From contig CASFCL010000002.1 of NCBI GenBank assembly GCA_949293255.1, positions 30,395 to 94,394 of the forward strand: 64,000 nucleotides of DNA, read 5' to 3'. The notes under the pieces were generated by a model. The model saw nothing but the letters and a program-made list of their open reading frames with translations. It was not told the DNA's origin and did no database searches. How positions within the stretch are numbered: position 1 is the first letter of the stretch; every line of letters starts with the position of its first letter. Source of the DNA: an uncultured bacterium. Lineage in GTDB: Bacteria > Bacillota_I > Bacilli_A > RFN20 > CAG-826. Made by a program: the position numbers and the translations under genes. Shown in pieces: positions 13,250 to 56,071 of the stretch.

Positions 13250-15631
13250 ATGATATCAGTAAAGAAAAGAGATGGAAAAATTGTTGATTTTGACTTACAC
13301 AAAATTGAATCCGCTATCGAAAGAGCATTTGTTGCTTGCGGAAAAGTTTACAATTCACAAATTATCGAACTTATCGCTTTAAAAGCAAGTTCAAACTTCA
13401 ACACAAAAATTGAAAATAATGTAGTATCAGTCGAAGATATTCAAGATGCTGTTGAAATTTCTTTAATTCAAGCAGGCTATGTTGATGTTGCTAAAGCCTA
13501 TATTAAATATAGACAACAACACGAAGCTTTAAGACAAATTAAACAAACAGAATTAGATTATAAGAAAACAGTCGACAACTACTTAAATATTAATGACTGG
13601 AGAGTTAAAGAAAATTCCACTGTTACTTATTCAGTTGGTGGTTTAATTCTTTCTAACAGCGGCGCTGTCACTGCTAACTATTGGTTAAGCGAAGTCTACG
13701 ATAAAGAAATCGCTGATGCACATAGAAATGCTGATATCCATCTTCATGATTTAAGTATGCTTACTGGCTACTGTGCTGGTTGGTCATTAAAGCAATTAAT
13801 TCAAGAAGGTCTTGGTGGAGTTACAGGAAAGATCACTTCTTCCCCTGCTTCTCACCTTTCAACCCTTTGCAATCAAATGGTTAACTTCTTAGGAATTATG
13901 CAAAATGAATGGGCTGGTGCTCAAGCTTTCTCCTCATTTGATACATATCTTGCTCCATTTGTTAAAGTTGATCACTTAACATACAAAGAAGTTAAACAAT
14001 GTATTCAATCATTTATCTTCGGTGTTAACACTCCATCAAGACGGGGAACTCAATCACCATTTACAAACATTACATTAGATTGGACAGTTCCAAATGATTT
14101 AGCTGAATTAAATTGTATTGTTGGTGGAAAAGAACAACCATTCAAATATAAAGATTGTAAAAAAGAAATGGATATGATCAATAAAGCATTCATCGAAGTT
14201 ATGATCGAAGGTGATGCTAATGGAAGAGGCTTCCAATATCCAATCCCAACATACTCAATTACAAAAGATTTTGATTGGTCAGATACTGAAAATAATAGAT
14301 TATTATTCGAAATGACCGCAAAATACGGTACTCCATACTTCTCAAACTATATCAATTCAGATATGCAACCAAGCGATGTTAGAAGTATGTGCTGTAGATT
14401 AAGATTAGATCTTAGAGAATTAAGAAAGAAATCAGGCGGCTTCTTTGGAAGCGGTGAATCTACCGGTAGTATTGGTGTTGTTACAATCAATATGCCAAGA
14501 ATTGCTTACCTTTCAACAGATGAAAATGATTTCTATGCAAGATTAGAAAAATTAATGAACATTGCAGCAAGATCATTAAAAATTAAACGTGATTTTGTTA
14601 CAAAACTTCTCGAAGCAGGATTATATCCATATACAAAGAGATATTTAGGAACATTCAACAACCACTTCTCCACTATCGGATTAGTTGGTATGAATGAAGC
14701 TTGTTTAAATGCTAGATGGATTAAAGAAGATTTAACTCATGAAAAAGCTGAAGAATTCACAGTAAATGTTCTTAACTTCATGAGAACAAAATTATCTGAC
14801 TATCAAGTTCAATATGGAGACTTATATAACCTTGAAGCTACTCCAGCAGAATCAACATCTTATCGTTTAGCAAAGCATGATAAAGAAAGATATCCAGACA
14901 TTATTACTGCTAGTATGAATGGAGAAACTCCATATTATACAAACTCAAGCCACTTACCAGTTGGTTATACAGAAGATTTATTTGAAGCTCTTGATAAAGA
15001 AGATCAATTCCAAACATTATACACATCAGGTACAGTCTTCCACTGTTTCTTAGGTCAAAAATTACCAGATTGGAAATCATGTATGAATCTTGTAAGAAAG
15101 ATTGCTGAAAATTACAAACTTCCTTACTACACCATGTCTCCAACATATTCTGTCTGTAAAAACCATGGTTACCTTGAAGGCGAACAAAAAGTTTGTCCAC
15201 ACTGTGGTTCAGCAACTGAAGTCTACTCAAGAATTACTGGTTACTATAGACCTATTCAAAACCGGAACGATGGTAAAACTCAAGAATTCAAAGATAGAAA
15301 AGAATACGTTCTTGGATCATCACACTTAAAAGAAAGAAAAGTTGAAAAAGAAGTTGAAACTCTAAACATCATTCAATCTCAAAAAGCTGATGTTTCAGAA
15401 TTAATGCTCTTCACAACAAAGACATGTCCAAACTGTAAATTAGCAAAATCAATCCTCGATAAAGCAGGAATCCCATATAAAGTCATCGATGCTGAAGAAA
15501 ATAAAGACGTCGTTCAAGCATATGGAATTAAAAAAGCTCCAACACTCTTAGTTCCTGATAACGATGGATACGATTATTACGAAAACGCATCATTAATTAA
15601 AGGCTTTGTCGAAAGTCACAAAGCCATGTAA
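13250..15631 (+). CDS. nrdD: Anaerobic (class III) ribonucleoside-triphosphate reductase with N-terminal ATP cone and C-terminal glutaredoxin/NrdH-like domain
   Basis: ATP cone KKRDGKIVDFD, RSMCCRL, EATPAE, Zn site CKNH...CPHC, glycyl-radical RITGYYRP, C-terminal TCPNC redoxin; SD AAGGAG. Confidence 0.95.
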   Translation: MISVKKRDGKIVDFDLHKIESAIERAFVACGKVYNSQIIELIALKASSNFNTKIENNVVSVEDIQDAVEISLIQAGYVDVAKAYIKYRQQHEALRQIKQTELDYKKTVDNYLNINDWRVKENSTVTYSVGGLILSNSGAVTANYWLSEVYDKEIADAHRNADIHLHDLSMLTGYCAGWSLKQLIQEGLGGVTGKITSSPASHLSTLCNQMVNFLGIMQNEWAGAQAFSSFDTYLAPFVKVDHLTYKEVKQCIQSFIFGVNTPSRRGTQSPFTNITLDWTVPNDLAELNCIVGGKEQPFKYKDCKKEMDMINKAFIEVMIEGDANGRGFQYPIPTYSITKDFDWSDTENNRLLFEMTAKYGTPYFSNYINSDMQPSDVRSMCCRLRLDLRELRKKSGGFFGSGESTGSIGVVTINMPRIAYLSTDENDFYARLEKLMNIAARSLKIKRDFVTKLLEAGLYPYTKRYLGTFNNHFSTIGLVGMNEACLNARWIKEDLTHEKAEEFTVNVLNFMRTKLSDYQVQYGDLYNLEATPAESTSYRLAKHDKERYPDIITASMNGETPYYTNSSHLPVGYTEDLFEALDKEDQFQTLYTSGTVFHCFLGQKLPDWKSCMNLVRKIAENYKLPYYTMSPTYSVCKNHGYLEGEQKVCPHCGSATEVYSRITGYYRPIQNRNDGKTQEFKDRKEYVLGSSHLKERKVEKEVETLNIIQSQKADVSELMLFTTKTCPNCKLAKSILDKAGIPYKVIDAEENKDVVQAYGIKKAPTLLVPDNDGYDYYENASLIKGFVESHKAM

Positions 15632-15636
15632 ATCTT

Positions 15637-16560
15637 ATGATTAAAGATTTAATAGTAATAGGAGGTGGGCCTTCAGGGCTCACCTCTTGCTTATATGCCT
15701 TAAGAGCCGGTAAATCTGTATTACTTCTTGAAAAAGAAAATATTGGTGGTCAAATTTCAATCTCCCCAAGAGTTGAAAATTTCCCATCAATCAAAAAAAT
15801 CTCCGGGATGGAGCTCGCTAATAACTTATTTGAACAAATTAGCGATCTTGGAGTTGAATTTGAACTTGATTCTTGTAATAAAATTACAAAAACCGACCAT
15901 AATACCTTCTGGATTGAAGGCGATTTTTCCTGCTATGAAGCAAAAGCTGTAATTGTTGCTACCGGTGTTAAACATCGCCACATCAACGTTCCAAAAGAAC
16001 AAGAATTAATTGGTCATGGTGTCTCATATTGTGCTGTTTGTGATGGTGCCTTTTATAAAGGTGAAGATGTTTGCTTAATTGGAGATGCAAACACTGCATT
16101 ACAATATGCAATTTTGCTTTCTGGATATTGTAATAAAGTTTATTTAAATACGCTTTTCGATAAATTCTTTGGTGATGATATTTTAGTAAATGAAGTAAAA
16201 GCAAAACCTAATATTATCATTCAACAAAACTTAAATTTAGAAGAATTTTATACCGATGAAAAAGGTGAATTAAACGGATTAAGATTTAAAGATACAAAGA
16301 CTCAACAAGATTATAAATTTGATGTAAAAGGTTGCTTTATTGCAATCGGTCAAGTACCTGATAATCAAAAATTTGCCGATCTAGTCGAATTAAATCCAAA
16401 CGGATTCATCATTACAAACGAAAATATGCAAACAAAGACTCCAGGAATATTTGCTTCAGGTGATTGTAGAGAAAAAGCAGTTAGACAATTAACTACTGCT
16501 TGTGGAGATGGAGCTATTGCTGCTGTTTACGCTTGTAGATATATTGATTCATTAAAATAA
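15637..16560 (+). CDS. trxB: Thioredoxin reductase-type FAD oxidoreductase
   Basis: IGGGPSGL, GVSYCAVCDG, GIFASGD...RQLTTACGDGA. Confidence 0.9.
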   Translation: MIKDLIVIGGGPSGLTSCLYALRAGKSVLLLEKENIGGQISISPRVENFPSIKKISGMELANNLFEQISDLGVEFELDSCNKITKTDHNTFWIEGDFSCYEAKAVIVATGVKHRHINVPKEQELIGHGVSYCAVCDGAFYKGEDVCLIGDANTALQYAILLSGYCNKVYLNTLFDKFFGDDILVNEVKAKPNIIIQQNLNLEEFYTDEKGELNGLRFKDTKTQQDYKFDVKGCFIAIGQVPDNQKFADLVELNPNGFIITNENMQTKTPGIFASGDCREKAVRQLTTACGDGAIAAVYACRYIDSLK

Positions 16561-16561
16561 C

Positions 16562-16587
16562 AAAATGGTCGAAAGACCATTTTTTTT
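16562..16587. terminator. Bidirectional intrinsic terminator between trxB and the DUF1848 gene
   Basis: AAAATGGTC-GAAA-GACCATTTT plus T-run. Confidence 0.85.
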
Positions 16588-17476
16588 AATCGTGTCTTTC
16601 TACTATTTTTGAGGTAGATTTTACTCTTCCTATAAGTAAAGAAGAATTATCAAAGTGATTCATTAAGTTTTTAGAAATTGAATGTTCATCAAAATTTGCA
16701 TAACAATATTTACAATAATTTGAACAAGTATTGTATGCACCAATATCCACCACTTGCACACAATTACAAAACTTATTTTTTCTAGCGTTCCGTTTTGGAA
16801 ATTCTTTTCCTGTTAAATGTTTAATAAATTCCTTTCCTAAACATTCGCCTTTTATAAAACCATATTCAAAAAAATCATTTTCTTCTGCACAAGTTTGAAC
16901 TAATTTTCCGTTTTCATCGGCAATTTTTGAAAATTCTATGCCTATTTTCTTATAGTCTTCTTTCGTAAAAGGAATGATATTCAAATCTTTCATATTTTTC
17001 TTTACGTTTTTATAAATATCAATAAAAGAAACGATGATTGTTTTTATGTTTTTATCAAGTTGAGAGCACAATTTTTTAAAAGCTCTTATATGATAATCAA
17101 CATTATATTTTTTAATAAGAAAAACAGGATCATATCGAACAAAAACTCTATTTGGACCTAAAAGTCTAGCTAATCTATTTGTACATTCGATTATATCTAT
17201 TTTGTTTTTTACATTAGGCTCGATATCTTTTTGATAACCTGTAATTGTTACAAAAAATAAAGTTGGTTTTACCATAAATCGATACATATAATTTTCTATA
17301 TTTCGAGGATCTTTTGTTGAAAAAACATATATATCTACATCTTCAAAATAAATTCTTGAAACCATTTCTTTATTAAAAGGGTTTTCAACATCAACAAAAC
17401 CTTCATTTAATCTATTGATTAGCCAAGGTGTGAAATATTTAACAATATCTGTTCTTCCACTTATATGTAAAATCAT
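16586..17476 (-). CDS. DUF1848 family protein (radical-SAM-like CxxxCxxC)
   Basis: MILHISGRTDIVKYFTPWL...VENPFN, RYDPV, DIGAYNTCSNYCKYCYAN. Confidence 0.88.
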   Translation of the reverse strand: MILHISGRTDIVKYFTPWLINRLNEGFVDVENPFNKEMVSRIYFEDVDIYVFSTKDPRNIENYMYRFMVKPTLFFVTITGYQKDIEPNVKNKIDIIECTNRLARLLGPNRVFVRYDPVFLIKKYNVDYHIRAFKKLCSQLDKNIKTIIVSFIDIYKNVKKNMKDLNIIPFTKEDYKKIGIEFSKIADENGKLVQTCAEENDFFEYGFIKGECLGKEFIKHLTGKEFPKRNARKNKFCNCVQVVDIGAYNTCSNYCKYCYANFDEHSISKNLMNHFDNSSLLIGRVKSTSKIVERHD

Positions 17477-20400
17477 TTCTTTAAATCTATTTTTCCTTGA
17501 TTTGTGGTGAAATCTTTATAAAAAGCAAGGATGTAATCAATCATTTCTTTAATTTTTATTGAACTTTGTAAAGAAATTGAGCTCGCACCAAAAGCATAAC
17601 CGACTGATTTAATCATATCTTCTAAAGTTATTTCTCTTTGAAGTTTTAAAATTTCAATCATTGCATTTTTAACTTCAACAATTGGAAGTTGTTCTAAAGA
17701 TCTTTGATAAATAGATGACGTTCTATAATAATCCATAGTGTCTAAATTTATTGATAAAGGATAATAAAAATACCCATTAATTTCTGCAACTTTTTTACTT
17801 TTTACATATCTAAGTTGAATATTAAATAGTCTTTTAACTTTTGGACCAACTCTTTCAAGTCCGAAGAAGTCTTTAAATCTTTGAAGTAAGAGATTTTCTG
17901 AAATTGGACCTTCATAATTAATTACGTTTTCTAAACTTGTAACTAATTCAGGGTACATTCTTTCAACTTGATAGTTCTCATAATTGAACGAATTGAAAAC
18001 TTTATATTTTAAATAATCTTTCTTTCTATGAGATTCATTGGTTTCTGCTTTTTCAAAATTGACATCATCTACTTCAATTTCATCAACGTTATTATCTAAA
18101 TTTTCTAAATTCTCTAAAGCTTTTAAGATATCTTTTATGACTTGATCCTTGTTTTTAAAGTAATCAATTGTAAAAATACGAATTATTTTCCATTTTAATC
18201 TAGTTAAAATTAAAGAATGAACATAGTTTCTATCTCTACATGTAGGGGTGCTTAAATATGTATCACTATCACAAATAATACCTAAAATATACTTTCCTTC
18301 ACTGTTTTTGATACATAAATCAATTTTAAATTTAGAATCTCCGACATTAATATCAGATTCAATTCCTAATTTTGCTAAATCCTCTTTAATGAAATTTTGT
18401 ACACCAATTTCGCTAATAATTTGATTCTTATTTTCTATTTCTAAAGACTCTAATCCTTGTTCAGCATATAAAAGGAATGATTTTAAAACTGCTGCTCCTT
18501 TATTTTTAACTCTTCTTGCATCAATATCTGAAGATTTAATTGAAGAATAAATTATCATTTCTTTTCTAGCTCTAGTTATTGCAACATTTAATCTTCTTTC
18601 ACCTTTATCTAAAGAAAGTGGGCCAAAATTATGTAAAAATTTGCCTTCAGGATTATAACCAAAACCAACAGAGAAAATAATTACATCTCTTTCATCACCT
18701 TGAACGTTTTCTAAATTCTTAATAAATAAAGGATCTTCTTCATTATTAATTAATTCTAAATATTTTGGATTATCCATTACTTCTTTTTGTAATTCTTTAT
18801 AAACAAATTCTTGTTGTTTGATGTTAAAACAAACTATACCGATGCTTTGTTTACTTAAAATTGGGTCATCTAATCTATGAATAATTTCTTTAACAATTGC
18901 TTTAGCTTCAACTTTATTAATTCCTGATTCATAAACACCATCTTTTAAATAATTAAAGGAAACTTTTGATAATTTATTATCAGGAGATGGGAAAGTATAA
19001 AGATTATGATCATAGAAATAATTATTTGAGAAAGCAATTAATGACTCATGAGCAGATCTATAGTGCCATAAAAGTCTATTTCTCTTCATTTTTAAAGTTA
19101 TACAATCATCTAAAAGCGACTCTAAATCTTCATAAACAATGCTTTCATCATATTCATCCAACGATGTAATGTTTGCTTTAAAGAAATTTGTTGGTGGCAT
19201 TTGTTGAGGATCACCTGCAACTATTAAGCTGTTTCCTCTAGAAATTGCACCAATTGCTTCACATGTAGGAATTTGACTTGCTTCATCAAAAATAACGATA
19301 TCGAACTTTTTAGTATCAAGACTTAAATATTGAGCAGCTGATAAAGGAGACATGAAGAAGCAAGGACAGAATGTTCTAATTAAATCTTCATAATCTTCTA
19401 AAATTCCTCTAATAGTTTGTCCTCTTCCACCATTTTTAATTAATTTTCTTAAACTATAAATTTTACTTGATTCAGCATATCTAACATTAGAGACTGGGAA
19501 GTCTTGAGTTAAAATGTTTGCGGTTTTTTCGATAACAAGAGTTGAAAAATTACTAAGTAGCTCATCATATTTTTTAATTGCTTCATTAAAGAGGATGCCA
19601 TTGAATTCATTATAATAAGGATCTTTAAAATAATTGTTTAATATGACTTTATAAACAGAAACTAAAAATCTATTTTTTAGTTCTTCTACACTAAATATAC
19701 CAACTCTATATTTTTGAATTATGTATTTATAAAGACCTAAATCTTCTAGTTCCTTAAGCACACGATTAAAAATAATAAGGTTATAGATTTCGTTCTTTTC
19801 GTCTAATGCCTTATTGAGTGAAGCAATGCATGACCCCATATATGAGGAATCTATTTCGTCAAAATCAGTTAAGAAAACGAAATCATATTTGTTTGAAAAT
19901 TCCGCCTCATAATCTCGAACTTTAGATATTTCTTGAATCATTATTTCAATATTATTTTTGACATTTTCCCCGTCTTTTAAATCAAAAATCTCGCAGAACC
20001 TTAATTTATTTTCTAAAACCTCGTTTTCTGGCATGTCTTTTAAAAGAAGGTCTACCTTATTTAATAAATCTAATCCATTGTCAAATCTAACCAAAAGATT
20101 TTTAAAATTAACTTCAGTTAAATCTTCTGAAATTCTTTCAAATTGTTCTATATATTGAGTTTTTAAGTTTATAGATTGTTCTTCTTCTTTTATTAAATTT
20201 AATAAGAAAAGATACTTTTCAATCTCTTTATTTGTTAACTTATGTTCTTTAATTTCTAAATATGCTTTAAGTTCTCTTTTGATATTGTGCTTAGCAAAAA
20301 ATTTAGTAAAAACATTTCCAGATTTAAGAGTTTCGATAACTTCTTTAATATAATCTTCGTCAATATTTAAAACAGATTTTTTAAATGTTTTAAATAAATA

Positions 20401-23262
20401 AGCGTAGTCTTCACTTAATTTAACGCCTTGGATGATAGTTTCTTTAATTGTTTCATAGTTTCTAACAAAATCTTGTTCAAAAATGTTATTAAGAACACAT
20501 TTATTTTGCATCAAAATTTCTAATATTTTGTTAAAAAACATTACGTTTTTGCGGGTCTTTTTAAAAGTAAAGTTAAATTCACCAAGAAAACTAGTTAAAC
20601 GAATATAATAATTTATCAACGCATCTCTTAAATCAGTAACCAAAGAGAAAAACTTATCATTAATCTTTGTATTATCCAAAATTAGGAGTCCCCTATATGG
20701 ATTTTCACAAAGTTTACCTCTTTGAGATTCTATTTCTTTTAATGTATTTAATCCGTCTACTATTTCTTTTATCCTTTTGTCGTCAAGATGAAGGGCTGCA
20801 AAATAATTGTCACTTTCTTTAAAATCAAACTCTCTTAATTCTTCATATCTTAATACTGCATCGTGTAAAGAATAGATGTACTTCCTCTCTGTAGTTTTGT
20901 TAATAAGTTGATTTAAATATTTCTTTTTTTCTTCTAAATCATTTAAATGGTCATCAAATTCTTTTGGAGAGACAATTCTTTCTAATTCCATAGATTGCTC
21001 AATTTGATTTAAGAAGTCTCTTTTATTTGATTTGCTCGAATGAAGTTCTAAACAGAAGTTACCTAAATGGATTTCATCAATTCTTTTTTTAACAACTTCA
21101 AGAGCAACCATTTTTTCAGCAACAAATAAGACTGATTTTTTGTTATAAAGTGCATTAACAATCATGTTGACGATGGTTTGAGATTTTCCGGTTCCTGGAG
21201 GACCATCTAAAACAAAACTTTCACCTTTTCCACAATCTAAAATAGCTTTTACTTGGGATGAATCAGCACCTAAAGGTATTGCAACATCATCAATTTGAAT
21301 ATTTTTATCGATATCTTTTAAATCAGTATCTTCTTCACTATTTCTATATGGTTTTCCTTCAACAAGACATTTAATAATGTCGTTTTTTAATAGTTCTTCT
21401 TTTCTATTAGAAATATCGTTCCAAATAATATAATTAGCAAAATATAAAATTGATAAATAACATTTATCGTCTTCTACTGTTATTTCACAATCTTCTGATG
21501 ATTTTGATCTAATAAGATTAATAATTGTGTTGTAATCTCTTTCTAAATTTTCTTTATTAACTGAATAAATTTCGTCTAAAGAGATGAGGAAATTTTGTTT
21601 AAGATACTCAAAAAGTGTCGTATTTATCGTAATTGCATCAAAGTTTAAATCTAATTCATAACTGTTATTTGAACCTTTAACTTTAGAAAAAGCTGGTACT
21701 AAAAATAAAGGTGCATAAAAATCTCTTTTACTTCCTCGAGGAGTAAATCTTACAAGACCTAAACTTAAATAAAGAGCGTTCGAACCGGTTTCTTCTACTA
21801 TTCCAACCGCTTTTCTACATAAGCTTCTATAATCATCAACTGATCCAGTAATTGCAAATTTGCCGTTTCTTTCATATTCACGGATTTCAATTAATGAAAC
21901 TTTTTGAATATCGTCGAGATTATTATCAATTTTTGTTGGTACAACTTTTAATTTTTCACTATTAGTAATACTTTCAATAAAGGTTCTTATTGTGCTAATA
22001 AAGATATATGGAGATTTTGAATTAAACTTAAAATTAATTAATCTATTTCTTAAAGAAAGGTCTAATAATTTCCTGCTCCAATAGAAAAACTTATCGTTTT
22101 CCTGCTTCTTTGAGGTAAAAATTACCCCATTATCCGCTGTTGACTTAACTTCAAAATCAACATCGTGCATGATAGGAAAATCGATTATTTCTTCATTTTG
22201 ATCGTTATATTTTATTTCTGGTATTGGTCGATAAATATATTGATGACATTTAAAAATATCAATTGCTTCAAAATATCCATGATAATTTCTTAAATGATTT
22301 CTTGCGGCTTCGTTTGCACCTCTAAATGTTGCCTCTTCCTTATCGTTTGTTAAAAGTGTGCATTCAACTAATTCTATTTGAGTGTTATTGTATGCTGATA
22401 AGTTATAAATATAAGAAGGTGACTCTAAAAAGTACGATTCAAACGTATTTTCACTTAAAAAGCATCCCGCAAAAGCATGACCTTCTTTAATAATCAAAAT
22501 TGGTCTTAATCCAACTGATTCTAAACAAGAACAATATAAAATTGCTAAATCTAAACAAGTTCCTTTTCCATTTATAACGACGTCTTTAGGAAGTCTAACT
22601 TTTTGAAATTCATTAAATGAGGCGGGCGGTAAAACATAAGAGATACCTTTTCTTTTAATAGCTTTAAAAATTGCCATCATTTCTTCTCTAACACTATCAA
22701 TATCGTTAGAAAGATATCCATAAAAAGCAGTTTCTTTGTTTCTTATTCCTTTTAATTCATAAAAAGCACTGTTGATAATTTTTCCAACAATATCATTATT
22801 TGGAGTAACAAATGAACTTAAAATACAAACATCTTCTTTTATTGAAGAAATTTCATTTATTGGGTTTAAAGTGAATAAAATTTGTTCGCTTAAAAGTTCT
22901 TCATAAGTTTTTTCGTTATATAGTTTTACAGTTATATTTACTGGAACTTCTTCGGTTAATTTATATAATTCTTTAACATTTAAATTTATTTTTATTCCTT
23001 CAGAAATATATGTTGTCGATCTTTTAAAAATTGAGGCAATATTTATGTTTTCAATTTGAATAATATCGTTATTGCTTTCAAAAGAAATTACACAATTAGA
23101 ATAATCATCATCTGATTCATTTGTAATAATTATTTTCTCAATTAAAGAATATGGAGTTGTTTTGATTGTTGAGTTTTTTTGCTTATAAAAACAATCAGTT
23201 TGATAATAAACGTAGTTATATTCTTTTCGGTGTATGAATTCTAATTTGATCCCTTTCTCCAT
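17473..23262 (-). CDS. Giant DUF4011 / SF1 helicase / Vsr-like nuclease / DUF3320 protein (Hhe-like) with N-terminal transglutaminase-like domain
   Basis: GTCLD...GHAFAG, WSRKLLDLSLRNRLINF, GPPGTGKSQT, DEASQ, WHYRS, NLENVQGDERD, RRLNVAITRA. Start moved to ATG 23262 (6 nt after TGCTATAAT). Confidence 0.88.
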   Translation of the reverse strand: MEKGIKLEFIHRKEYNYVYYQTDCFYKQKNSTIKTTPYSLIEKIIITNESDDDYSNCVISFESNNDIIQIENINIASIFKRSTTYISEGIKINLNVKELYKLTEEVPVNITVKLYNEKTYEELLSEQILFTLNPINEISSIKEDVCILSSFVTPNNDIVGKIINSAFYELKGIRNKETAFYGYLSNDIDSVREEMMAIFKAIKRKGISYVLPPASFNEFQKVRLPKDVVINGKGTCLDLAILYCSCLESVGLRPILIIKEGHAFAGCFLSENTFESYFLESPSYIYNLSAYNNTQIELVECTLLTNDKEEATFRGANEAARNHLRNYHGYFEAIDIFKCHQYIYRPIPEIKYNDQNEEIIDFPIMHDVDFEVKSTADNGVIFTSKKQENDKFFYWSRKLLDLSLRNRLINFKFNSKSPYIFISTIRTFIESITNSEKLKVVPTKIDNNLDDIQKVSLIEIREYERNGKFAITGSVDDYRSLCRKAVGIVEETGSNALYLSLGLVRFTPRGSKRDFYAPLFLVPAFSKVKGSNNSYELDLNFDAITINTTLFEYLKQNFLISLDEIYSVNKENLERDYNTIINLIRSKSSEDCEITVEDDKCYLSILYFANYIIWNDISNRKEELLKNDIIKCLVEGKPYRNSEEDTDLKDIDKNIQIDDVAIPLGADSSQVKAILDCGKGESFVLDGPPGTGKSQTIVNMIVNALYNKKSVLFVAEKMVALEVVKKRIDEIHLGNFCLELHSSKSNKRDFLNQIEQSMELERIVSPKEFDDHLNDLEEKKKYLNQLINKTTERKYIYSLHDAVLRYEELREFDFKESDNYFAALHLDDKRIKEIVDGLNTLKEIESQRGKLCENPYRGLLILDNTKINDKFFSLVTDLRDALINYYIRLTSFLGEFNFTFKKTRKNVMFFNKILEILMQNKCVLNNIFEQDFVRNYETIKETIIQGVKLSEDYAYLFKTFKKSVLNIDEDYIKEVIETLKSGNVFTKFFAKHNIKRELKAYLEIKEHKLTNKEIEKYLFLLNLIKEEEQSINLKTQYIEQFERISEDLTEVNFKNLLVRFDNGLDLLNKVDLLLKDMPENEVLENKLRFCEIFDLKDGENVKNNIEIMIQEISKVRDYEAEFSNKYDFVFLTDFDEIDSSYMGSCIASLNKALDEKNEIYNLIIFNRVLKELEDLGLYKYIIQKYRVGIFSVEELKNRFLVSVYKVILNNYFKDPYYNEFNGILFNEAIKKYDELLSNFSTLVIEKTANILTQDFPVSNVRYAESSKIYSLRKLIKNGGRGQTIRGILEDYEDLIRTFCPCFFMSPLSAAQYLSLDTKKFDIVIFDEASQIPTCEAIGAISRGNSLIVAGDPQQMPPTNFFKANITSLDEYDESIVYEDLESLLDDCITLKMKRNRLLWHYRSAHESLIAFSNNYFYDHNLYTFPSPDNKLSKVSFNYLKDGVYESGINKVEAKAIVKEIIHRLDDPILSKQSIGIVCFNIKQQEFVYKELQKEVMDNPKYLELINNEEDPLFIKNLENVQGDERDVIIFSVGFGYNPEGKFLHNFGPLSLDKGERRLNVAITRARKEMIIYSSIKSSDIDARRVKNKGAAVLKSFLLYAEQGLESLEIENKNQIISEIGVQNFIKEDLAKLGIESDINVGDSKFKIDLCIKNSEGKYILGIICDSDTYLSTPTCRDRNYVHSLILTRLKWKIIRIFTIDYFKNKDQVIKDILKALENLENLDNNVDEIEVDDVNFEKAETNESHRKKDYLKYKVFNSFNYENYQVERMYPELVTSLENVINYEGPISENLLLQRFKDFFGLERVGPKVKRLFNIQLRYVKSKKVAEINGYFYYPLSINLDTMDYYRTSSIYQRSLEQLPIVEVKNAMIEILKLQREITLEDMIKSVGYAFGASSISLQSSIKIKEMIDYILAFYKDFTTNQGKIDLKK

Positions 23263-23373
23263 AAAAAAATTATAGCACAAGTGTATTTTCTATTATTACA
23301 CATTTTATATTAAATTTTTATAAAAATTTTAATTTTATCCACGATTAGCGCGTTTTTTTGGGACATAAAAAAT

Positions 23374-23398
23374 AAAAAAAGCCCTAATTTCTTAGGAC
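23374..23398 (-). terminator. Intrinsic terminator after rpsR
   Basis: GTCCTAA-GAAA-TTAGGGC followed by T7 on the minus strand. Confidence 0.8.
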
Positions 23399-37554: not shown

Positions 37555-39648
37555 ATGCCACCTAGAAGTAGAATAGTTTCAAAACCAAAGAATTTTAAAG
37601 GAACAGGTATAAGATTAATTAAAGACTTTAAGAAAAATCTTCCAATTATTTCTTGCATTATTGCTCTTGCTATTTTAAGTGCGGTTTTATCAATTTTTTC
37701 GCCTATATTAATTAATAGATTATTAAGTCAAGAAACATTAGCTGAAATGTTTGATGGTTCAACTGGTGTCATTCAAATTCAACGGCCTGTTTTCTTTTCA
37801 AATTTTGGAATAATTTTAGGAGTTTACTTAATTAGCGCTTTATTTTCTTGGTTATCTGAATTTTTAGCAGTTAACATAAGTGCAAATTATGCTAAAGAAA
37901 TGAGACAAAAAGTCCAAAGAAAATTAGATAGTTTGCCTTTATCTTATTACGATAGGGTCCCTTATGGAGATACACTTTCAGTCGCCATAAACGATGTTGA
38001 TAACATTGCTAGAAACCTTCAAACAATTATTACTCAAGTTTTTGCTTCATTAACTTTATTTATTGGTGCAATTATTGCGATGTTTGTCATTAGATGGGAA
38101 TTAGCATTTGTTGCGATCTGCTCGCTTCCTTTTACTATTTTAATTGTTATTTTTGTTGGTAAAATTTCAGGTAAGAAATTCGAATTATTTAGAAAACAAT
38201 TAGGTGAATTAAACGGAAAAATCGAAGAAAATTACGCCGGATTTAAGGTTATTAAATTATTTAATAAAGAAGAAGATATTGTCGTTGATTTTAATAAAAC
38301 TAACGAAGAAATGAGAAAATCTGATGGAATTTCACAATTTTTATCAGGTTTTATCTTCCCTTCAACAAACTTTATTAATAATTTAGCATATGTTGCAATT
38401 GCAGTTACTGCTGGATTATTAAGCGATGTTGCAGGAATGATCACTTTCTTCTTGCTTTTAAATTGTTTTACTAGACCTTTCCAACAATTAGGTCAAATCT
38501 TCTCAACAATTCAATCAGTTGTTGCTAGTGGAGAAAGAATTTACTCACTTCTTGATGAACCAGAAGTTAGAAAAGATAAAGAAGAAGCAATCGCAAGCGA
38601 AGATGAAATTAAAGGTAATTTCTCTTTCAATAATGTTTATTTCCAATACACCTACGATAAACCTTTAATTGAAAAATTCTTCCTTGATGTTAAAGCTGGA
38701 GATACAGTTGCAATCGTTGGACCAACTGGTGCAGGAAAAACCACAATGGTTAATTTAATCATGAGGTTTTACGACATTACAAATGTTGTTGATAACGACA
38801 ATTTAACTGAGAAAACACTAGGTTTTATTAACGCAGCTAACGATTTATTAAAGCTTCCAAAGGTTTCAAAAGAATCGATCCCAACGTTTAATTTAGACGA
38901 TTTAAATTTAGCTATTAAAGAAGCTTCTAAATATATTTATGAATATATTGAAATTGCTAGAACTCGCTGTGAATCTAAACTTTTACAAGACGAAAACACC
39001 AATCAAAAACTTTGTAAACTTGTCAATTTAATACCAAATCAAATCAATTTAGGTAACATTTATTTAGATGGAAGACCGCTCGATGATTACAAAGTTGATA
39101 CTTTAAGAGGAAGTATCGGTATGGTTTTACAGGATACGTGGTTATTTAAAGGAACTATTAAAGAAAATCTTCTTTTTGGTGATCAAAATGCAACTGATGA
39201 AGAGATTATTGAAGCTTGTAAAAAAGCTCATATACATCATTTTATTGAAACACTTCCTGGTGAATATAATTTTGAATTAAATGAAGATGGTACTAATATT
39301 TCTCAAGGCCAAAGACAACTTTTAACTATCGCTAGAGCTATTATTTCAAAGCCAAAAATCTTAATTTTAGATGAAGCTACAAGTAGTGTTGATACAAGAA
39401 CCGAACAAGCAATTCAAGATGCTTTAAATAACATTATGGTTAATAAAACCTCGTTTGTTATTGCTCATAGACTTTCAACAATTAAGAATTCGAAAATGAT
39501 TATTGTCATGAAAAAAGGCCATATTGTTGAAGTTGGAAATCATAAAGAACTACTTCAACAAGGCGGTTTCTACGCTGACTTATATAACTCACAATTTAGT
39601 GGTGTAAATCCAATGGAAAAACAAGAAGAAATCGTGTTTGACAGTTAA
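37555..39648 (+). CDS. Heterodimeric ABC exporter subunit 2 (TM288/LmrD-like) with ~89-aa NBD insertion
   Basis: TMD plus GPTGAGKT, ISQGQRQ, LDEATSSVD, IAHRLS. Confidence 0.93.
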   Translation: MPPRSRIVSKPKNFKGTGIRLIKDFKKNLPIISCIIALAILSAVLSIFSPILINRLLSQETLAEMFDGSTGVIQIQRPVFFSNFGIILGVYLISALFSWLSEFLAVNISANYAKEMRQKVQRKLDSLPLSYYDRVPYGDTLSVAINDVDNIARNLQTIITQVFASLTLFIGAIIAMFVIRWELAFVAICSLPFTILIVIFVGKISGKKFELFRKQLGELNGKIEENYAGFKVIKLFNKEEDIVVDFNKTNEEMRKSDGISQFLSGFIFPSTNFINNLAYVAIAVTAGLLSDVAGMITFFLLLNCFTRPFQQLGQIFSTIQSVVASGERIYSLLDEPEVRKDKEEAIASEDEIKGNFSFNNVYFQYTYDKPLIEKFFLDVKAGDTVAIVGPTGAGKTTMVNLIMRFYDITNVVDNDNLTEKTLGFINAANDLLKLPKVSKESIPTFNLDDLNLAIKEASKYIYEYIEIARTRCESKLLQDENTNQKLCKLVNLIPNQINLGNIYLDGRPLDDYKVDTLRGSIGMVLQDTWLFKGTIKENLLFGDQNATDEEIIEACKKAHIHHFIETLPGEYNFELNEDGTNISQGQRQLLTIARAIISKPKILILDEATSSVDTRTEQAIQDALNNIMVNKTSFVIAHRLSTIKNSKMIIVMKKGHIVEVGNHKELLQQGGFYADLYNSQFSGVNPMEKQEEIVFDS

Positions 39649-44234: not shown

Positions 44235-44236
44235 GA

Positions 44237-45933: not shown

Positions 45934-46468
45934 CTTTTAATACCTTTTTTAAATCTTCTTTAGTAATTTGTAAAATGTTCAACTTTTTTAATAATGTCTT
46001 TCCGTTTGAATGTCCGATCGAATAATAATCAGTTACTTTCTTTCTTAAACCTGAAGAATTTTCTTTACCTAATAAATCTAATTCATAAAGTTCGCTTAAA
46101 GTTATAGTTTCTTTAACAATATTATTAGAAATTTTAAGAAGATTTGAAAGAGCATTTTCAATTTCTTCTTTAGTAGATTCGGCTACACCAACTTTATGAT
46201 TTTTAATTGAAAATTCTTTTCTAACATAAGCGTTGTAACAACCTGAGATTTCTTCATTAATTTTGTTCCTTATTTGAGTTCCAGGAAAGTCAGGATCAGT
46301 AAGAATTATAATTTTTAAATTTTCTTTAGCTTTTTTAATAAAATTTATGTCTTTTTCGTTAATTGCAGATCCATTAACTGCATAAAAATTAGAATTTATA
46401 AAAGATTCTAAAAAAGTGATATCTGATTGACCTTCTACAACAATTAAAGAATCTATTAAATTAATCAT
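45920..46468 (-). CDS. rnmV: Ribonuclease M5
   Basis: IVVEGQSD, ILTDPDFPG..IR, VGVAE, NGKTLLKKLN; upstream of rsmA. Confidence 0.92.
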   Translation of the reverse strand: MINLIDSLIVVEGQSDITFLESFINSNFYAVNGSAINEKDINFIKKAKENLKIIILTDPDFPGTQIRNKINEEISGCYNAYVRKEFSIKNHKVGVAESTKEEIENALSNLLKISNNIVKETITLSELYELDLLGKENSSGLRKKVTDYYSIGHSNGKTLLKKLNILQITKEDLKKVLKDANS

Positions 46469-47243: not shown

Positions 47244-47244
47244 T

Positions 47245-48570: not shown

Positions 48571-48586
48571 AATATATACTTATAAT

Positions 48587-49312: not shown

Positions 49313-49315
49313 AAA

Positions 49316-51154: not shown

Positions 51155-51485
51155 TGGTTTCCCCTTTGATAACTTTAAGTAATTCTGAAAGATTTTCTAA
51201 ATTACTTAAAAACTCTTCAGTGTCATAAGCTTTTGAAATTGTAACGACAAAATCATATTTTTCGCTAAATGTAAGAGTAGATGTAATAATTTCACGAACT
51301 TGTCTTTTGATTTTGTTTCTTCTTACTGCGTTTCCGTGTTTTTTAGTAATAAGGATTCCTACGCGTGAATAATCGAATTTTCTATCGTCAAAATAAACAG
51401 TAAATAATTTATTTCTTTTAAATTTTCTTTGATCGAGTATTTGTTTAAATTCGCGATATGTTTTTATTACATTCTTTTTCTTCAT
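51147..51485 (-). CDS. rnpA: RNase P protein component
   Basis: RVGILITKKHGNAVRRNKIKRQVRE. Confidence 0.96.
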   Translation of the reverse strand: MKKKNVIKTYREFKQILDQRKFKRNKLFTVYFDDRKFDYSRVGILITKKHGNAVRRNKIKRQVREIITSTLTFSEKYDFVVTISKAYDTEEFLSNLENLSELLKVIKGETNE

Positions 51486-51490
51486 TAAAA

Positions 51491-51631
51491 TTAAGCACTA
51501 ACAGTTAATGATTTTCTTCCTTTTGCTCTTCTTGCAGCTAAAACTTTTCTACCATTTGGTGTAGACATTCTTGCTCTAAATCCATGTGTTCTTAATTTAT
51601 GAATTTTGCTTGGTTGGTAAGTTCTTTTCAT
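51491..51631 (-). CDS. rpmH: 50S ribosomal protein L34 (not in the ORF track)
   Basis: Hand translation: [46 protein letters not shown]; SD GGAGG. Confidence 0.97.
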
Positions 51632-52090
51632 TTTTAATTTCCTCCATTTCGTTACGTAAAAATACGTGCAATAAATTATATATGTATTTATACATATAAG
51701 TCAAATTATAAAAAGTCATATTCTTAAAGTCAAAATGAAATCATATTCACACCTTTAATTTATAAAAATTGTTTAATTTTAATTTATTCACATTATGTGG
51801 AAAACTCAATTATTTTATGTTTAATATAATCTAAAACAAGCGATTTTATCGATATTTTTACAATGTGGAAAACTTTTAAAAATGTGCAATTTTTATCACA
51901 AATACACAATTTTCAACAGTGTAAATCTTTATTCACAAAGTTTTCCACATAAAAAGTTGTGGAAATTGCTTTTTTATCGATAAAATCATTGATTTTTATT
52001 AAGAAAAATGTGGACAAAATAATTTTGTGGTTTTTATCACTTTTTTTAATGTGTAAAAGTAGTAAAATTTTACACGAAAGGTTTTAAATT
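51632..52090. other. oriC part 1: DnaA-box cluster between rpmH and dnaA
   Basis: TTATTCACA 51784 and 51929, TGTGGAAAA 51796 and 51864, TTTTCCACA 51941; near matches at 51910, 51958, 52009. Confidence 0.9.
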
Positions 52091-53449
52091 ATGGCTTTAA
52101 ATACATTAAATGAGATCCAAAAACTTTGGTCTCGTGCATTAGAAGATTTAAAAAAGAAAATTAGTGACGTAAAAGTTTACGATGCTTTCTTTAAGACTGC
52201 TTATATTTATTCAATTGAAGGAAATAAGTTAGTTCTTGCTTGCGATTCAAAATTTGCTTTAACAATTTTGAAACAATACGCTGATTTAATTAAAGAAAGT
52301 ATTGATAAAGAATCTGGAAGTGATTTTCAAATTATTATTACTACTCAAGAAGATATCGAAAGTAAGCCTAAAGAAAAAATTATTGAAGAGAAACCTGTAT
52401 TTTTTAAGTCATCAATAGTTGATCCAAATTATACATTTGATAATTTTGTTGTTGGTTTATCAAATAAAGAAGCTTCTCAAGCAGGATTAATCGTTTCAGC
52501 TAACCCAGGAGATTTATATAATCCTTTATTTATATTTGGTGGAAGTGGATTAGGAAAAACGCATTTATTAAACGCAATTGGTAATCACATTAAAGAGACA
52601 AAACCTCTTAAAAAAATCCTTTGTATTACTGCTCAAGATTTCCTTTACCAATATCTTGAATATGTAAATAATTCGCAAAAAAATGAGGATTTAGCAGGGT
52701 TTATTAAAAATTTTGACGTGTTATTGCTCGATGATATTCAAATGTTAAATGATAAAAAGAAGACTCTTGAATTCTTCTTTGATATCTATCAATACTTCTT
52801 ACAAAACAAAAAATTAATCGTTCTCACAAGTGATAGATTGCCATCTGAACTTACCGGAATTGATGCTAGACTTGTCTCAAGATTTATGGATGGATTAACT
52901 GTTCAAATCACTCAACCAAATTCACAAATGTGTGAAGATATTCTTAAAAAGAAAATTGTTGGAGCAGGTTTAAGTTTAGATGAATTTGATGATGATGTAA
53001 TTTCGTTTGTAGCTGATAAATTTAAATCCACTGTTAGAGATCTTAATGGTGCATTAAATAGAATTATCTTCATTAAAAACCTTAGACACGCTGATCATAT
53101 CGACTTAGATTTAGCTACTGAAGCATTATCAAGCATCTTAAATGTTAGTAACGGTAAAAAATCAGTTAATGAATATAAAATTTTAAACACTGTTGGAAGT
53201 TATTACAATTTAAGCGTTCCTCAAATCACAGGAAAATTAAAAACAGGACAAATTGCTTTAGCTAGACATATTGCAATTTACTTAATTAGACAACAATTAG
53301 ACCTTCCACTTAAGAAAATTGGTGAATTGTTCTCTAATAGAGACCACACAACTATCATGTATAGTGTGTCTAAAGTAGATGAATTGTTGAAAACTAATGA
53401 ACAATATAAAATCGCTATCAACGAGATAAAAAAGCGATTAAACGGGTAA
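52091..53449 (+). CDS. dnaA: Chromosomal replication initiator
   Basis: YTFDNFVVG, YNPLFIFGGSGLGKTHLL, LLDDIQ, RDHTTIMY. Confidence 0.98.
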   Translation: MALNTLNEIQKLWSRALEDLKKKISDVKVYDAFFKTAYIYSIEGNKLVLACDSKFALTILKQYADLIKESIDKESGSDFQIIITTQEDIESKPKEKIIEEKPVFFKSSIVDPNYTFDNFVVGLSNKEASQAGLIVSANPGDLYNPLFIFGGSGLGKTHLLNAIGNHIKETKPLKKILCITAQDFLYQYLEYVNNSQKNEDLAGFIKNFDVLLLDDIQMLNDKKKTLEFFFDIYQYFLQNKKLIVLTSDRLPSELTGIDARLVSRFMDGLTVQITQPNSQMCEDILKKKIVGAGLSLDEFDDDVISFVADKFKSTVRDLNGALNRIIFIKNLRHADHIDLDLATEALSSILNVSNGKKSVNEYKILNTVGSYYNLSVPQITGKLKTGQIALARHIAIYLIRQQLDLPLKKIGELFSNRDHTTIMYSVSKVDELLKTNEQYKIAINEIKKRLNG

Positions 53450-53560
53450 AATTTGAATTCTAAGGTGTATAAAATTAGAGTTCTCCACCGTTTCAACAGA
53501 GGTTATTATTACTATTAATATTTAAAAATAAATTAATAAAAATATAAGAGGTAAGAAATT
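53450..53560. other. oriC part 2: probable unwinding element with two weak DnaA boxes and DnaA-trio-like run
   Basis: TTCTCCACC/GTTTCAACA at 53481-53498, then GAGG and TTATTATTACTATTAAT, then an AT-rich tract, as in the B. subtilis dnaA-dnaN spacer. Confidence 0.65.
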
Positions 53561-54685
53561 ATGAAATTTACAATTAAAAAAGACGAATTCCTAAAAGCAT
53601 TGTTAGTAGCTAACAAAGTTATTGGAGGTAAAATTGTTAATCCAGTTTATGTTAACTACAAAATTGAATTAGATGAAAGAGGATTAGTTATTACTTCTTC
53701 TAATTCAGAAATGTGTATTACTACTGTTGTTCCTTTCTATAAAAACAATTTAGAAGTTATTAGAGATGTAATCCCAGGAGGAACTTTAATAAACGCTAAA
53801 ACTTTAACAGAAATTATTAAATTGTCTAATGATGATGAAATTACTGTTGAAGATCTTGGTGATAATGAAATTAAAGTCTATTCCAAACATTCATACTACA
53901 ACTTACATTCAATAAGAATCGAAGAATATCCAGATATCGATTTTAATTTAAATGGAATAGAACTTGAGATGACATCAAAAGATTTTGTAGATGCAGTTAG
54001 CCAAGTTGCTTTCTCAGCTTCTACAAAAGATACAAAACCACTTTTAACCGCGATTAATGTTGAAGGAGCAAGCGAAACAATCACTTTTACAGCTACAGAT
54101 GGGTCTAGACTTGCAAAATCAACACTTCAAGTTGATGTTCAACAAAGATTCAATGTCAACATCCCAGCAAAAGCTATGGTCGAAGTTGCTAGAACAATTA
54201 CAACTGAAAAAGAAATTTATCTTTATGTTTCAGAAAAGAAAGTTATTTTCAAACTTGATAACGTATTGATTTCAAGTAGTTTAATCGTTGGTGACTATCC
54301 AAGAACAAATAACATTGTTCCAAAAGTCTTTAGCTACACACTTGAAGTCAATTCTCAAGAATTCTTAAGTGCAATGAATAGAGTTTCAATCTTCTCAACT
54401 GAAAGAGAAAATATTATTCATTTATCAATGAGTGAAAATAAAGTCAAAGTTTCCTCGAGATCTCAACAACTTGGATCAGGAGAAGAATCAATCTCATTAT
54501 TTAAATTCAACGGTGATGATTTTGAAATGTCATTCAATTGTGAATATGTTGCAAATGCTATCAGAGCATTGAGAAGTGAAGACGTAGTTTTAAGCTTTGT
54601 TGGTGAAATGAAGCCATTTACAGTATCAACAAAAGGCAATAAAAACGTTATTCAAGTTGTCACGCCTGTTAGAGCCTACTATTAA
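53561..54685 (+). CDS. dnaN: DNA polymerase III beta clamp
   Basis: MKFTIKK, ATDGSRLA, LIVGDYP, SFNCEYV, VVTPVR; follows dnaA. Confidence 0.96.
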   Translation: MKFTIKKDEFLKALLVANKVIGGKIVNPVYVNYKIELDERGLVITSSNSEMCITTVVPFYKNNLEVIRDVIPGGTLINAKTLTEIIKLSNDDEITVEDLGDNEIKVYSKHSYYNLHSIRIEEYPDIDFNLNGIELEMTSKDFVDAVSQVAFSASTKDTKPLLTAINVEGASETITFTATDGSRLAKSTLQVDVQQRFNVNIPAKAMVEVARTITTEKEIYLYVSEKKVIFKLDNVLISSSLIVGDYPRTNNIVPKVFSYTLEVNSQEFLSAMNRVSIFSTERENIIHLSMSENKVKVSSRSQQLGSGEESISLFKFNGDDFEMSFNCEYVANAIRALRSEDVVLSFVGEMKPFTVSTKGNKNVIQVVTPVRAYY

Positions 54686-54734
54686 AAATTTTGAAATTTA
54701 GGCCGTTTCCTTTTGATTTTTCTTTAAAATAACT

Positions 54735-54761
54735 TCCCTTTAATATATAATATTAAAGGGA
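54735..54761. promoter_or_regulatory. 12-bp inverted repeat spanning the -10 box and SD of yaaA-recF-gyrB-gyrA
   Basis: TCCCTTTAATAT-ATA-ATATTAAAGGGA; TATAAT at 54746-54751. Confidence 0.55.
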
Positions 54762-54767
54762 TTTTTT

Positions 54768-54995
54768 ATGGCTAGCGAGAATTACAAGGAAGTTAAAATC
54801 ACAACTGACTACATTACATTAGGTCAATTGCTTAAATTTTGTGATGTTATCGATAGTGGTTCATACGCAAAAATTTTTCTTAGTGAAAACACTGTTTTTG
54901 TTAATGGAACATTAACTTCTCAAAGAGGTAAAAAACTTTATCCAGGATCAAAAGTAATCATAAATAATTCGTTGTTTTTTGAAATAGTAAAATGA
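54768..54995 (+). CDS. yaaA: S4-domain protein YaaA
   Basis: YITLGQLLK...SGSYAK.FL..V.VNG...RGKKLY; position dnaN-yaaA-recF. Confidence 0.93.
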   Translation: MASENYKEVKITTDYITLGQLLKFCDVIDSGSYAKIFLSENTVFVNGTLTSQRGKKLYPGSKVIINNSLFFEIVK

Positions 54996-56071
54996 TTGTT
55001 GAATCTCTAACTTTAGAAAATTTTAGAAATTTTGACTCTTTAGAACTTAATTTTAATAAGGGTATTAATTTTATTTACGGACCTAACGGAAGTGGTAAAA
55101 CCAACCTTGTTGAAGCTATTTATTACTTGTCTTTAACTAGGAGCTTTAGGACAAATAATGAGGATTCACTTATTAATCTAAAAACTGATAATTTTAAAAT
55201 AAAAGCCAGGATTTGCAGGGATTTTTGTTCAAATTACGTATATATTTTCAAAAATAAAGAAGGAAAATATATTGAAATTAATAACAAAAACATTAAAAAA
55301 ATATCAGAAATTAATAAGAGTACAAACTGCTTAATTTTCAGTCCTAAAGATGTAAATTTATTGAAAGATTTACCTAAAGAAAGAAGAAATTTTATGAATC
55401 TATTGATCTCTAAAATTGATGATGAATATTTAAAAGATTTTATTCAATTCAATAAAATTTTGAAAAATAGAAACGCAATTTTAAAAGAAAATTCAATTGA
55501 TTTAAAACTTCTAAATGTAGTTACAAAACAACTCATCGAAGTTAGTAAAAAACTTTATTCGTTTAGAAAAAGATATTTAAAAAAACTTGATGAAGCTTTA
55601 AAAAACGCATATTCAAAAATTGCTAAAGATAAAAATAAACTTATCGAAATAGTTTATAAGCCAATTATAGATAATTTAGAAAGTTTTGAAGAAATAGCTA
55701 CTCGAATGTATAAAGATTCTTTAGAAGAAGATTTAAAAAAGAAAACTACTACAATTGGAGTTCATAAAGAAGACTTTATGATCAAAGTAAATGGTAAAAA
55801 TGTTGGAATGTATGGTTCTCAAGGAGAAAATCGTATTGCTACACTAGCATTAAAGTTGGCTCCTTATTACTTAAAAGAAAACAATAAACCAATAATTATT
55901 CTAGATGACGTTTTATCTGAATTAGATGATAAACATCAATCAAATTTACTATCAATGCTAAAAGATTTTGAACAAGTATTCATTACTTCAACCTTCAAAA
56001 TCGAAAATATACAAGAAAACATACGGTTTTTTAAGATAGATAACGCTAAATTTGTTAAGGAAGGAGCATAA
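54992..56071 (+). CDS. recF: DNA replication/repair protein RecF
   Basis: LENFRNF, GPNGSGKTN, SFRT, YGSQGE.R, LDDVLSELD. Confidence 0.96.
   Translation: MIVESLTLENFRNFDSLELNFNKGINFIYGPNGSGKTNLVEAIYYLSLTRSFRTNNEDSLINLKTDNFKIKARICRDFCSNYVYIFKNKEGKYIEINNKNIKKISEINKSTNCLIFSPKDVNLLKDLPKERRNFMNLLISKIDDEYLKDFIQFNKILKNRNAILKENSIDLKLLNVVTKQLIEVSKKLYSFRKRYLKKLDEALKNAYSKIAKDKNKLIEIVYKPIIDNLESFEEIATRMYKDSLEEDLKKKTTTIGVHKEDFMIKVNGKNVGMYGSQGENRIATLALKLAPYYLKENNKPIIILDDVLSELDDKHQSNLLSMLKDFEQVFITSTFKIENIQENIRFFKIDNAKFVKEGA

Follow-up and report, generated by a model that had tools for sequence, protein, structure and literature searches.

The subject of this analysis is the codon CGG in an uncultured bacterium of the GTDB order RFN20 (family CAG-826), as seen in a stretch of 64,000 nucleotides (nt) from contig CASFCL010000002.1 (assembly GCA_949293255.1, positions 30,395 to 94,394 of the forward strand), hereafter called the window. 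An earlier note on this DNA, made from its letters alone, had proposed that CGG is reassigned in it from arginine (Arg) to tryptophan (Trp). The G+C content (GC) of the window is ~29% (0.27–0.36 per 4-kb segment), 93% of it is coding, and its 44 open reading frames (ORFs) of at least 100 amino acids amount to 19,903 codons. The gene order is that typical of the chromosomal origin region of Bacillota, rnpA-yidC-jag-mnmE ... dnaA-dnaN-recF-gyrB-gyrA-serS-tadA, and the window further holds purA, purB, glyA, dnaB, rplI, gdpP, nrdD, the S6-SSB-S18 genes, ftsH, tilS, mfd, pth and ppdK, together with a TetR regulator and an ABC exporter pair. The genes on which the argument turns are the following (window coordinates, strand, product, Pfam match):

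13250..15631, + strand: nrdD, anaerobic ribonucleotide reductase with ATP-cone and C-terminal glutaredoxin-like domain; two CGG and eight TGG codons; NRDD 1–562 of 562, E 5.7e-192
16586..17476, − strand: DUF1848 gene; one CGG codon; PF08902, E 6.9e-79
37555..39648, + strand: second subunit of the ABC exporter pair; one CGG codon; ABC_membrane and ABC_tran
54992..56071, + strand: recF, within the order dnaA-dnaN-recF-gyrB-gyrA; one CGG codon in the tail; SMC_N and related families
63230..63691, + strand: TadA-like tRNA adenosine deaminase gene; dCMP_cyt_deam_1 and MafB19-deam

In-frame CGG codons

CGG occurs in frame five times in the 44 ORFs, as listed here with the reading that we give to each codon:

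14042..14044, + strand: NrdD residue 265, NTPSR[CGG]GTQ; read as Trp
15263..15265, + strand: NrdD residue 672, RPIQN[CGG]NDGK; read as Trp
16790..16792, − strand: DUF1848 residue 229, FPK[CGG]NARK; read as Trp
37783..37785, + strand: ABC exporter subunit residue 77, QIQ[CGG]PVF; probably Trp
56024..56026, + strand: RecF residue 345, in a hypervariable C-terminal tail; uninformative

The earlier note had given just these five codons, and its coordinates and contexts were all exact, as was its count of eight TGG codons in nrdD. Small genuine genes (S18, S6, L34 and two S4-like genes) contained no additional CGG. Over the 44 ORFs the codon counts were CGG 5, TGG 84, AGA 643, AGG 34, CGT 49, CGC 10 and CGA 23, which for CGG and AGA corresponds to 2.5 and 323 per 10,000 codons. 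The in-frame rate of CGG lies ~10-fold below its rate in all frames, for which 152 plus-strand CGG and 158 CCG were counted. Trp is itself unusually scarce in the window (TGG 42 per 10,000 codons) and, if all five CGG codons are counted as Trp, CGG makes up five of 89 Trp-coding codons (~6%).

The 44 ORFs end in TAA (39), TAG (2) or TGA (3). Each of the three TGA-ended ORFs has another in-frame stop within 0–5 codons, and with TGA taken as stop the ORFs cover their Pfam domains end to end, so that TGA is to be read as a stop codon, as the earlier note had held. Translation table 4 was considered for the window and rejected on the same two grounds.

Homolog columns at the CGG codons

Alignment to homologs, a check that the earlier note had itself proposed, places three of the five CGG codons decisively at Trp and a fourth at Trp in its nearest homologs, with the RecF codon being uninformative. 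For NrdD, the columns were taken from the best 120 of more than 8,000 homologs, which are 81–99% identical to the window protein. W is found in 119 of these 120 at residue 265 (column NTPSRWGTQ), and residue 672 gives the same count (column RP[ILV]QNWNDGK); the solved NrdD 8p23 has W at the counterpart of residue 672, in a ...DRWNSGK motif. The Trp motifs that the earlier note had given for these two sites were therefore correct. The same is true of the Trp given for the DUF1848 site, residue 229, where the best 120 homologs have W in 117, S in two and R in one, the lone R being the representative of a same-species cluster. Apart from that cluster the DUF1848 homologs are only 52–61% identical to the window protein, and so lie mostly outside any reassigned clade.

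The ABC exporter and RecF sites had been described as less constrained, and they proved to be so. In a library-wide phmmer search over 50%-identity cluster representatives, the three nearest representatives of the ABC subunit (58, 41 and 35% identity) have W at residue 77, and the loop varies in remoter ones. At RecF 345 most homologs carry T, N, S, K or A, while two have W and two have R; the tail has a two-residue insertion here relative to other species.

As a codon control, the other Arg codons were examined in the NrdD, DUF1848 and RecF alignments after removal of conspecific rows. Arg-majority columns were found at 34 of 42 AGA, three of three CGT, one of four CGA and two of four AGG codons. 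Trp-majority columns were found at nine of nine TGG and three of four CGG codons and at none of the 53 AGA, AGG, CGT and CGA codons combined (3/4 against 0/53, Fisher one-sided p = 1.4e-4). None of the five CGG sites of the window stands in an Arg column. The CGA codon at DUF1848 residue 114 falls in an invariant Arg column (R in 119 of 119). The earlier note's placing of CGA and AGG at conserved Arg positions thus holds for one CGA and two AGG codons; the columns of the remainder vary, and none is a Trp column.

CGG and TGG among conspecific strains

Sister contigs assembled from other samples cover parts of the window, L009 being 98.9% identical to it over positions 3250–25634 and L001 99.6% identical over 53231–64000; ERZ16268276 scaffold_134, ERZ17292900 k87_18808609 and Logan ERR10610595 are among the sister assemblies. 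At nrdD codons 265 and 672, the window has CGG/CGG and L009 has TGG/TGG, while L165 has CGG/TGG and both L166 and L167 have TGG/CGG. These five independently assembled nrdD alleles differ further by 51 synonymous and 11 other amino-acid differences. A 90%-identity cluster of proteins contained ten full-length conspecific NrdD variants, among which WW, WR, RW and RR all occur at residues 265 and 672; public protein databases carry the CGG sites of this species as Arg. As all four combinations are found at invariant Trp sites of an essential enzyme, they point to synonymous variants rather than to segregation of Trp and Arg, and on these allele sequences CGG and TGG behave as synonyms in the species.

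At DUF1848 residue 229, ten conspecific variants have R in nine cases and W in one, with the codon verified as CGG only in the window and in L009. The CGG codon at residue 77 of the ABC subunit is also present in the sister strains L161 and L163. RecF codon 345 is CAG in L001, and conspecific RecF variants have R (8) or Q (4) at this residue. The RecF tail at 56012–56026 (codons 341–345) is hypervariable within the species, codon 341 encoding Q, R or P.

A tRNA(CCG) in related genomes

Metagenome contigs were scanned with a pattern built on the tRNA-Trp anticodon stem, GGTCTCCGRAACC...GTTCGAWTC. At least 120 matches were returned and, among the matches listed, each was an ordinary tRNA-Arg(CCG) whose loop reads CTCCGGA, so the pattern was abandoned; the anticodon stem of the clade's tRNA(CCG) is CCAAT/GTTGG and not the tRNA-Trp stem assumed. 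A scan of GTDB species representatives with the loop CTCCGRA, the T-loop and the acceptor end CCCCYG gave 18 matches. Five of these are low-GC (0.276–0.296) contigs of metagenome-assembled genomes (MAGs), L134, L135, L139, L142 and L148, labelled as uncultured Bacilli, Bacillales or bacterium. Each encodes a 74-nt tRNA with anticodon CCG, the loop CUCCGAA and an encoded CCA end. All five have G5:C68, A9 and the discriminator base G73, with A1:U72 as the first pair (G1 in L134), and their short D-loop, AAUGGUA, places U and not A at position 20. A tRNA(CCG) in the genome of the window would be expected to resemble AGGGGCTTAAGTTAATGGTA.ACT..CAATCTCCGAAGTTGG...CCCCTG. Viral contigs scanned for the core of the clade's tRNA(CCG) gave no match.

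Shulgina and Eddy (PMC8629427) treat G73 and the lack of A20 as marks of a Trp-type tRNA, with A/G1:U72 as support. By these marks the tRNA(CCG) of the five MAGs is Trp-type and not Arg-type. We aligned the five tRNA(CCG) genes with two tRNA-Trp(CCA) genes of CAG-826 from the supplement of PMC13092985 and counted covariation over the cloverleaf, since minimum-free-energy folds of the single tRNAs did not always return it. Pairing was seen in 98.6% of cells, 13 of 21 pairs had changed on both sides, and no shuffled or slid control scored as high. The anticodon stem has five base pairs in all five tRNA(CCG), whereas the two tRNA-Trp(CCA) references carry an A27-C43 mismatch.

The five loci have genes in common at 39–99% identity and hence come from related species. 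Both in-gene CGG codons of these loci have a W as their aligned counterpart in the L142 orthologue (...VKI[CGG]MQN with ...IKIWMKN, and ...LQN[CGG]KVNG with ...LQNWKVNG).

Reading of CGG and its alternatives

We consider it highly probable, from the columns, alleles and tRNAs described above, that this organism reads CGG as Trp, with TGG still Trp, with CGU, CGC, CGA, AGA and AGG still Arg, and with TGA as stop; those checks proposed in the earlier note that were carried out all favoured this reading. The data from the window fit the codon-capture route that was proposed, along with a tRNA-Arg(ICG) model, in PMC8629427. On this route, AT-biased mutation (GC ~0.29) would have pushed CGG near extinction, and the tRNAs that read CGG as Arg would have been lost. 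A tRNA-Arg(ICG), arising through the action of TadA (a gene of this type is present in the window), would read CGU, CGC and CGA and leave CGG to a dedicated tRNA. That tRNA(CCG), with G73, A1:U72, G5:C68 and A9 and without A20, would be charged by tryptophanyl-tRNA synthetase and form Watson-Crick pairs with CGG. From then on, a TGG-to-CGG transition at a Trp codon would be synonymous and could drift in the population. We infer that the genome of the window carries a Trp-type tRNA(CCG) of this kind, and that tRNA(UCG) and tRNA-Arg(CCG) are missing from it; charging with Trp and insertion of Trp at CGG would presumably go with these.

Several observations weigh against this assignment of CGG to Trp. 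The tRNA(CCG) with G73 that the earlier note had anticipated was found at the five related MAG loci and not in the window, where ARAGORN called no tRNA gene, nor in ~26 kb of flanks recovered from sister contigs (L001, 9 kb further downstream to the contig end; L006, 8 kb upstream; and L168). The five tRNA loci have no gene in common with the window and its flanks, so that the decoding tRNA is seen for the clade and not for the genome of the window. Two Arg identity elements, C35 and G36, are retained in the tRNA(CCG), whose overall identity is 0.62–0.73 to tRNA-Trp against a maximum of 0.62–0.68 to tRNA-Arg(CCG). Overall identity was accordingly discarded as a test of descent from one or the other, its ranges failing to separate the two, and we infer charging from the identity elements alone. 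Lastly, the RecF codon alternates with CAG (Gln) among strains in a column that is not Trp; this is neutral and lends the assignment no help.

The retained C35-G36 and an overall identity only marginally closer to tRNA-Trp would also suit an early stage of reassignment, in which CGG is decoded ambiguously or inefficiently, mostly as Trp with some Arg or with ribosome stalling. CGG is indeed still very rare, at 2.5 per 10,000 codons here and one in ~67,000 codons in a sister species, and ambiguous translation is left open by the authors of PMC8629427. We nonetheless judge such decoding improbable. NrdD, which is probably the sole ribonucleotide reductase of the cell, an anaerobe, tolerates CGG at two invariant Trp positions, and there the codon segregates as a neutral variant would, in all four haplotypes; in addition, A20, the main determinant for arginyl-tRNA synthetase, is missing from the related tRNAs.

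A standard code, with the CGG codons being either tolerated Trp-to-Arg substitutions or errors of sequencing or assembly, is very improbable in our view. A single T-to-C change does separate each CGG from TGG, and annotation pipelines do give Arg. However, three independent CGG codons stand in columns that are 97–99% Trp, as against 0/53 of the other Arg codons, no CGG of the window stands in an Arg column, and relatives possess a Trp-type tRNA(CCG); error is ruled out by the recurrence of identical CGG codons in separate assemblies from different samples. Editing of C to U in the mRNA, restoring UGG before translation, would likewise yield Trp at the CGG sites and is compatible with the sequence data, but we regard it as the least probable explanation of all. 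We know of no system for C-to-U mRNA editing in bacteria. Editing would require site-specific machinery for scattered and polymorphic sites, and the dedicated Trp-type tRNA(CCG) of the relatives gives a simpler account than editing does.

Relation to known variant codes

Reassignment of CGG to Trp was reported by Shulgina and Eddy (eLife 2021, PMC8629427) for uncultivated Bacilli of the GTDB order RFN20, genus UBA4855, a lineage that a 2026 NAR (Nucleic Acids Research) paper names Onthovivens (PMC13092985); in the supplement of the latter, GCA_002451465.1, formerly UBA4855 sp002451465, is given as Onthovivens sp002451465 of family CAG-826. The source data of PMC8629427 give UBA4855 a GC of 0.26–0.30 and 0.9–2.5 CGG per 10,000 codons, with tRNA(CCG) and tRNA(ACG) present and tRNA(UCG) absent. 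The window resembles this lineage in GC (~0.29), in AGA as the dominant Arg codon, in a CGG frequency below 6 per 10,000 codons (2.5 here), in the presence of CGG at conserved Trp positions and in the use of TGA as stop. The dedicated tRNA(CCG) of Onthovivens, with G73 and no A20, has its counterpart in the related MAGs and not in the window's genome as recovered. Where the window differs is in its protein sequences, which are on average only ~60% identical (12 syntenic genes) to those of the nearest fetched species.

CGG is also reported as Trp in Anaerococcus (Peptoniphilaceae), again at low GC and with a tRNA(CCG) that has Trp features (PMC8629427). In contrast to the window, Anaerococcus belongs to an unrelated lineage (Clostridia) and its CGG is rarer still, at 0.2–1.5 per 10,000 codons. 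Gene content and homologs of the window point to RFN20 Bacilli and not to Anaerococcus, and none of the 18 matches of the tRNA scan over GTDB representatives had a locus title naming Anaerococcus. The Absconditabacterales code, in which TGA is Gly and both CGA and CGG are Trp, shares with the present case the reading of CGG through a Trp-like tRNA. Unlike that code, the window has TGA as stop, no CGA in a W column and one CGA at an invariant Arg, and the code was rejected for the window because of its TGA stops and the CGA at DUF1848 residue 114. Mycoplasma capricolum, where CGG is unassigned, and the Mycoplasmatales with code 4 (UGA to Trp) resemble the present case in the loss of a codon under AT pressure and in an additional tRNA for Trp whose anticodon is one base removed from CCA. 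Contrary to both, the window uses CGG at functional sites and does not use TGA as sense.

Placement of the species

The best named matches to NrdD, among the best 120 homologs, were MAGs of 'Candidatus Onthovivens sp.' and 'Mollicutes bacterium' at 81% identity. The suggestion in the earlier note that the window belongs to the clade found in the Codetta screen is thus probably right, its closest named NrdD homologs being 'Candidatus Onthovivens sp.'. NrdD is better conserved than its neighbours, with 81–88% identity between species against 42–69% for the neighbouring proteins, and RecF is at most 55% identical to any non-conspecific match, so the NrdD values overstate the closeness to named Onthovivens. 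The nearest fetched species, L130, has an NrdD that is 88% identical to that of the window, the same gene order and TGG at both nrdD sites. Its single CGG, at codon 211 of a TrxB-like gene, was discarded as evidence, the column being variable with N in the window and E in L151.

Ten strains of one further species, L151–L160, carry the NCBI name 'Candidatus Onthovivens sp.', and protein identity between the window and L151 is 42–81%. Their one CGG in ~67,000 codons is polymorphic, a W of a DUF2804 protein being encoded by TGG in nine strains and by CGG in one.

With protein identity of ~60% to the nearest fetched species, the window species is probably not among the four originally listed for the CGG-to-Trp clade, and it looks like a further species with this known reassignment. 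It is also conceivable, though we think it doubtful, that the lineage stands outside the reported Onthovivens subclade, in which case the reassignment would be older or wider in family CAG-826, or would have arisen independently, and would be unusually advanced here.

Implications for annotation and confirmation

To our knowledge, reassignments of sense codons are very rare in bacteria, and we know of no CGG case with proof at the protein level. The reassignment itself has already been reported for relatives, and the window is a new example of it and not a discovery. The added value of the case lies in the within-species CGG/TGG polymorphism and in the tRNA sequences from five species representatives; polymorphism of this kind is not described in the portions of PMC8629427 and PMC13092985 drawn on here. 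These population data go beyond inference from a single genome, as strains exchange CGG and TGG at invariant Trp sites in the manner of true synonyms, and a rebound of CGG has begun in the species. Should the lineage indeed lie outside the reported subclade, it would offer a natural population showing codon capture in progress, with CGG at ~6% of all Trp codons and with CGG and TGG segregating as neutral alleles in the four haplotypes of one gene.

Annotation with translation table 11 puts Arg at three invariant Trp residues, NrdD W265 and W672 and DUF1848 W229, and the variant code is advisable whenever genes from this clade are called, have their products' structures predicted or are expressed in another host. 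The lineage inhabits the gut and is well suited to metaproteomic confirmation and to study of the capture phase of codon reassignment. The portions of PMC8629427 and PMC13092985 drawn on here report no peptide evidence for CGG as Trp in the Onthovivens clade. Two tryptic peptides of NrdD would discriminate between the readings: over residue 265, WGTQSPFTNITLDW... is expected if CGG is Trp and GTQSPFTNITLDW... if it is Arg, and over residue 672, ITGYYRPIQNWNDGK is expected for Trp and ITGYYRPIQNR for Arg.

Further tRNA loci and neighbouring genes

Other matches of the tRNA scans are recorded here as separate observations. At positions 1088–1161 (+) of L133 (JAFWJP010000191.1, 'MAG: Solobacterium sp. 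isolate RGIG5799', GC 0.51) there is a tRNA with anticodon CCG, the loop CTCCGAA, A1:U72 and G73. It stands directly 3' of a tRNA-Glu and is nearly identical in build to the tRNA-Trp(CCA) of the CAG-826 genus RUG14515. CGG is common at this locus (4–8 per gene) and is found where the YjeF_N motif has its conserved Arg, GNNGGDGFVIA[CGG]IL. This may be a tRNA-Trp whose anticodon mutated recently or a variant introduced in assembly, or the tRNA may cause mistranslation.

On L136 (CAYOSS010000004.1, GC 0.60), positions 4232–4428 (+) hold a tRNA-Trp(CCA) followed ~70 nt on by a near-copy with an eight-base anticodon loop (CTCCGAAA) that ARAGORN does not call, and on L145 (6083–6236) part of the 3' half of a tRNA-Trp is repeated after it. 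L137 (PBFJ01000007.1, 'bacterium isolate SP3100', GC 0.32), an unrelated low-GC MAG, encodes at 1907–1981 (−) another tRNA(CCG) of Trp-like build, which has a GGTCTCCGAAACC arm and ends in CCCCTG. Its long ORFs are nearly without TGG, a 776-aa Clp-like ATPase having none at all, and it may belong to another of the reported CGG-to-Trp lineages.

In the window itself, the C-terminal glutaredoxin/thioredoxin-like domain of NrdD occupies residues ~713–775, and a gene for a thioredoxin-reductase-like flavoprotein (15637–16560) starts 5 nt downstream of nrdD. The domain and the adjoining flavoprotein seem to give the class III reductase a reductant system of its own, and the arrangement of nrdD with the flavoprotein gene is kept in L130 and L151. 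Within 16586–23280 (−), a gene of 1,935 aa with DUF4011, AAA_11/AAA_12 helicase, MTES_1575 and DUF3320 domains shares 4 nt at its end with the DUF1848 gene, and because of this overlap the two probably form one operon. In L130, an Fe-ADH gene takes the place of the DUF1848 gene beside the same giant helicase gene.

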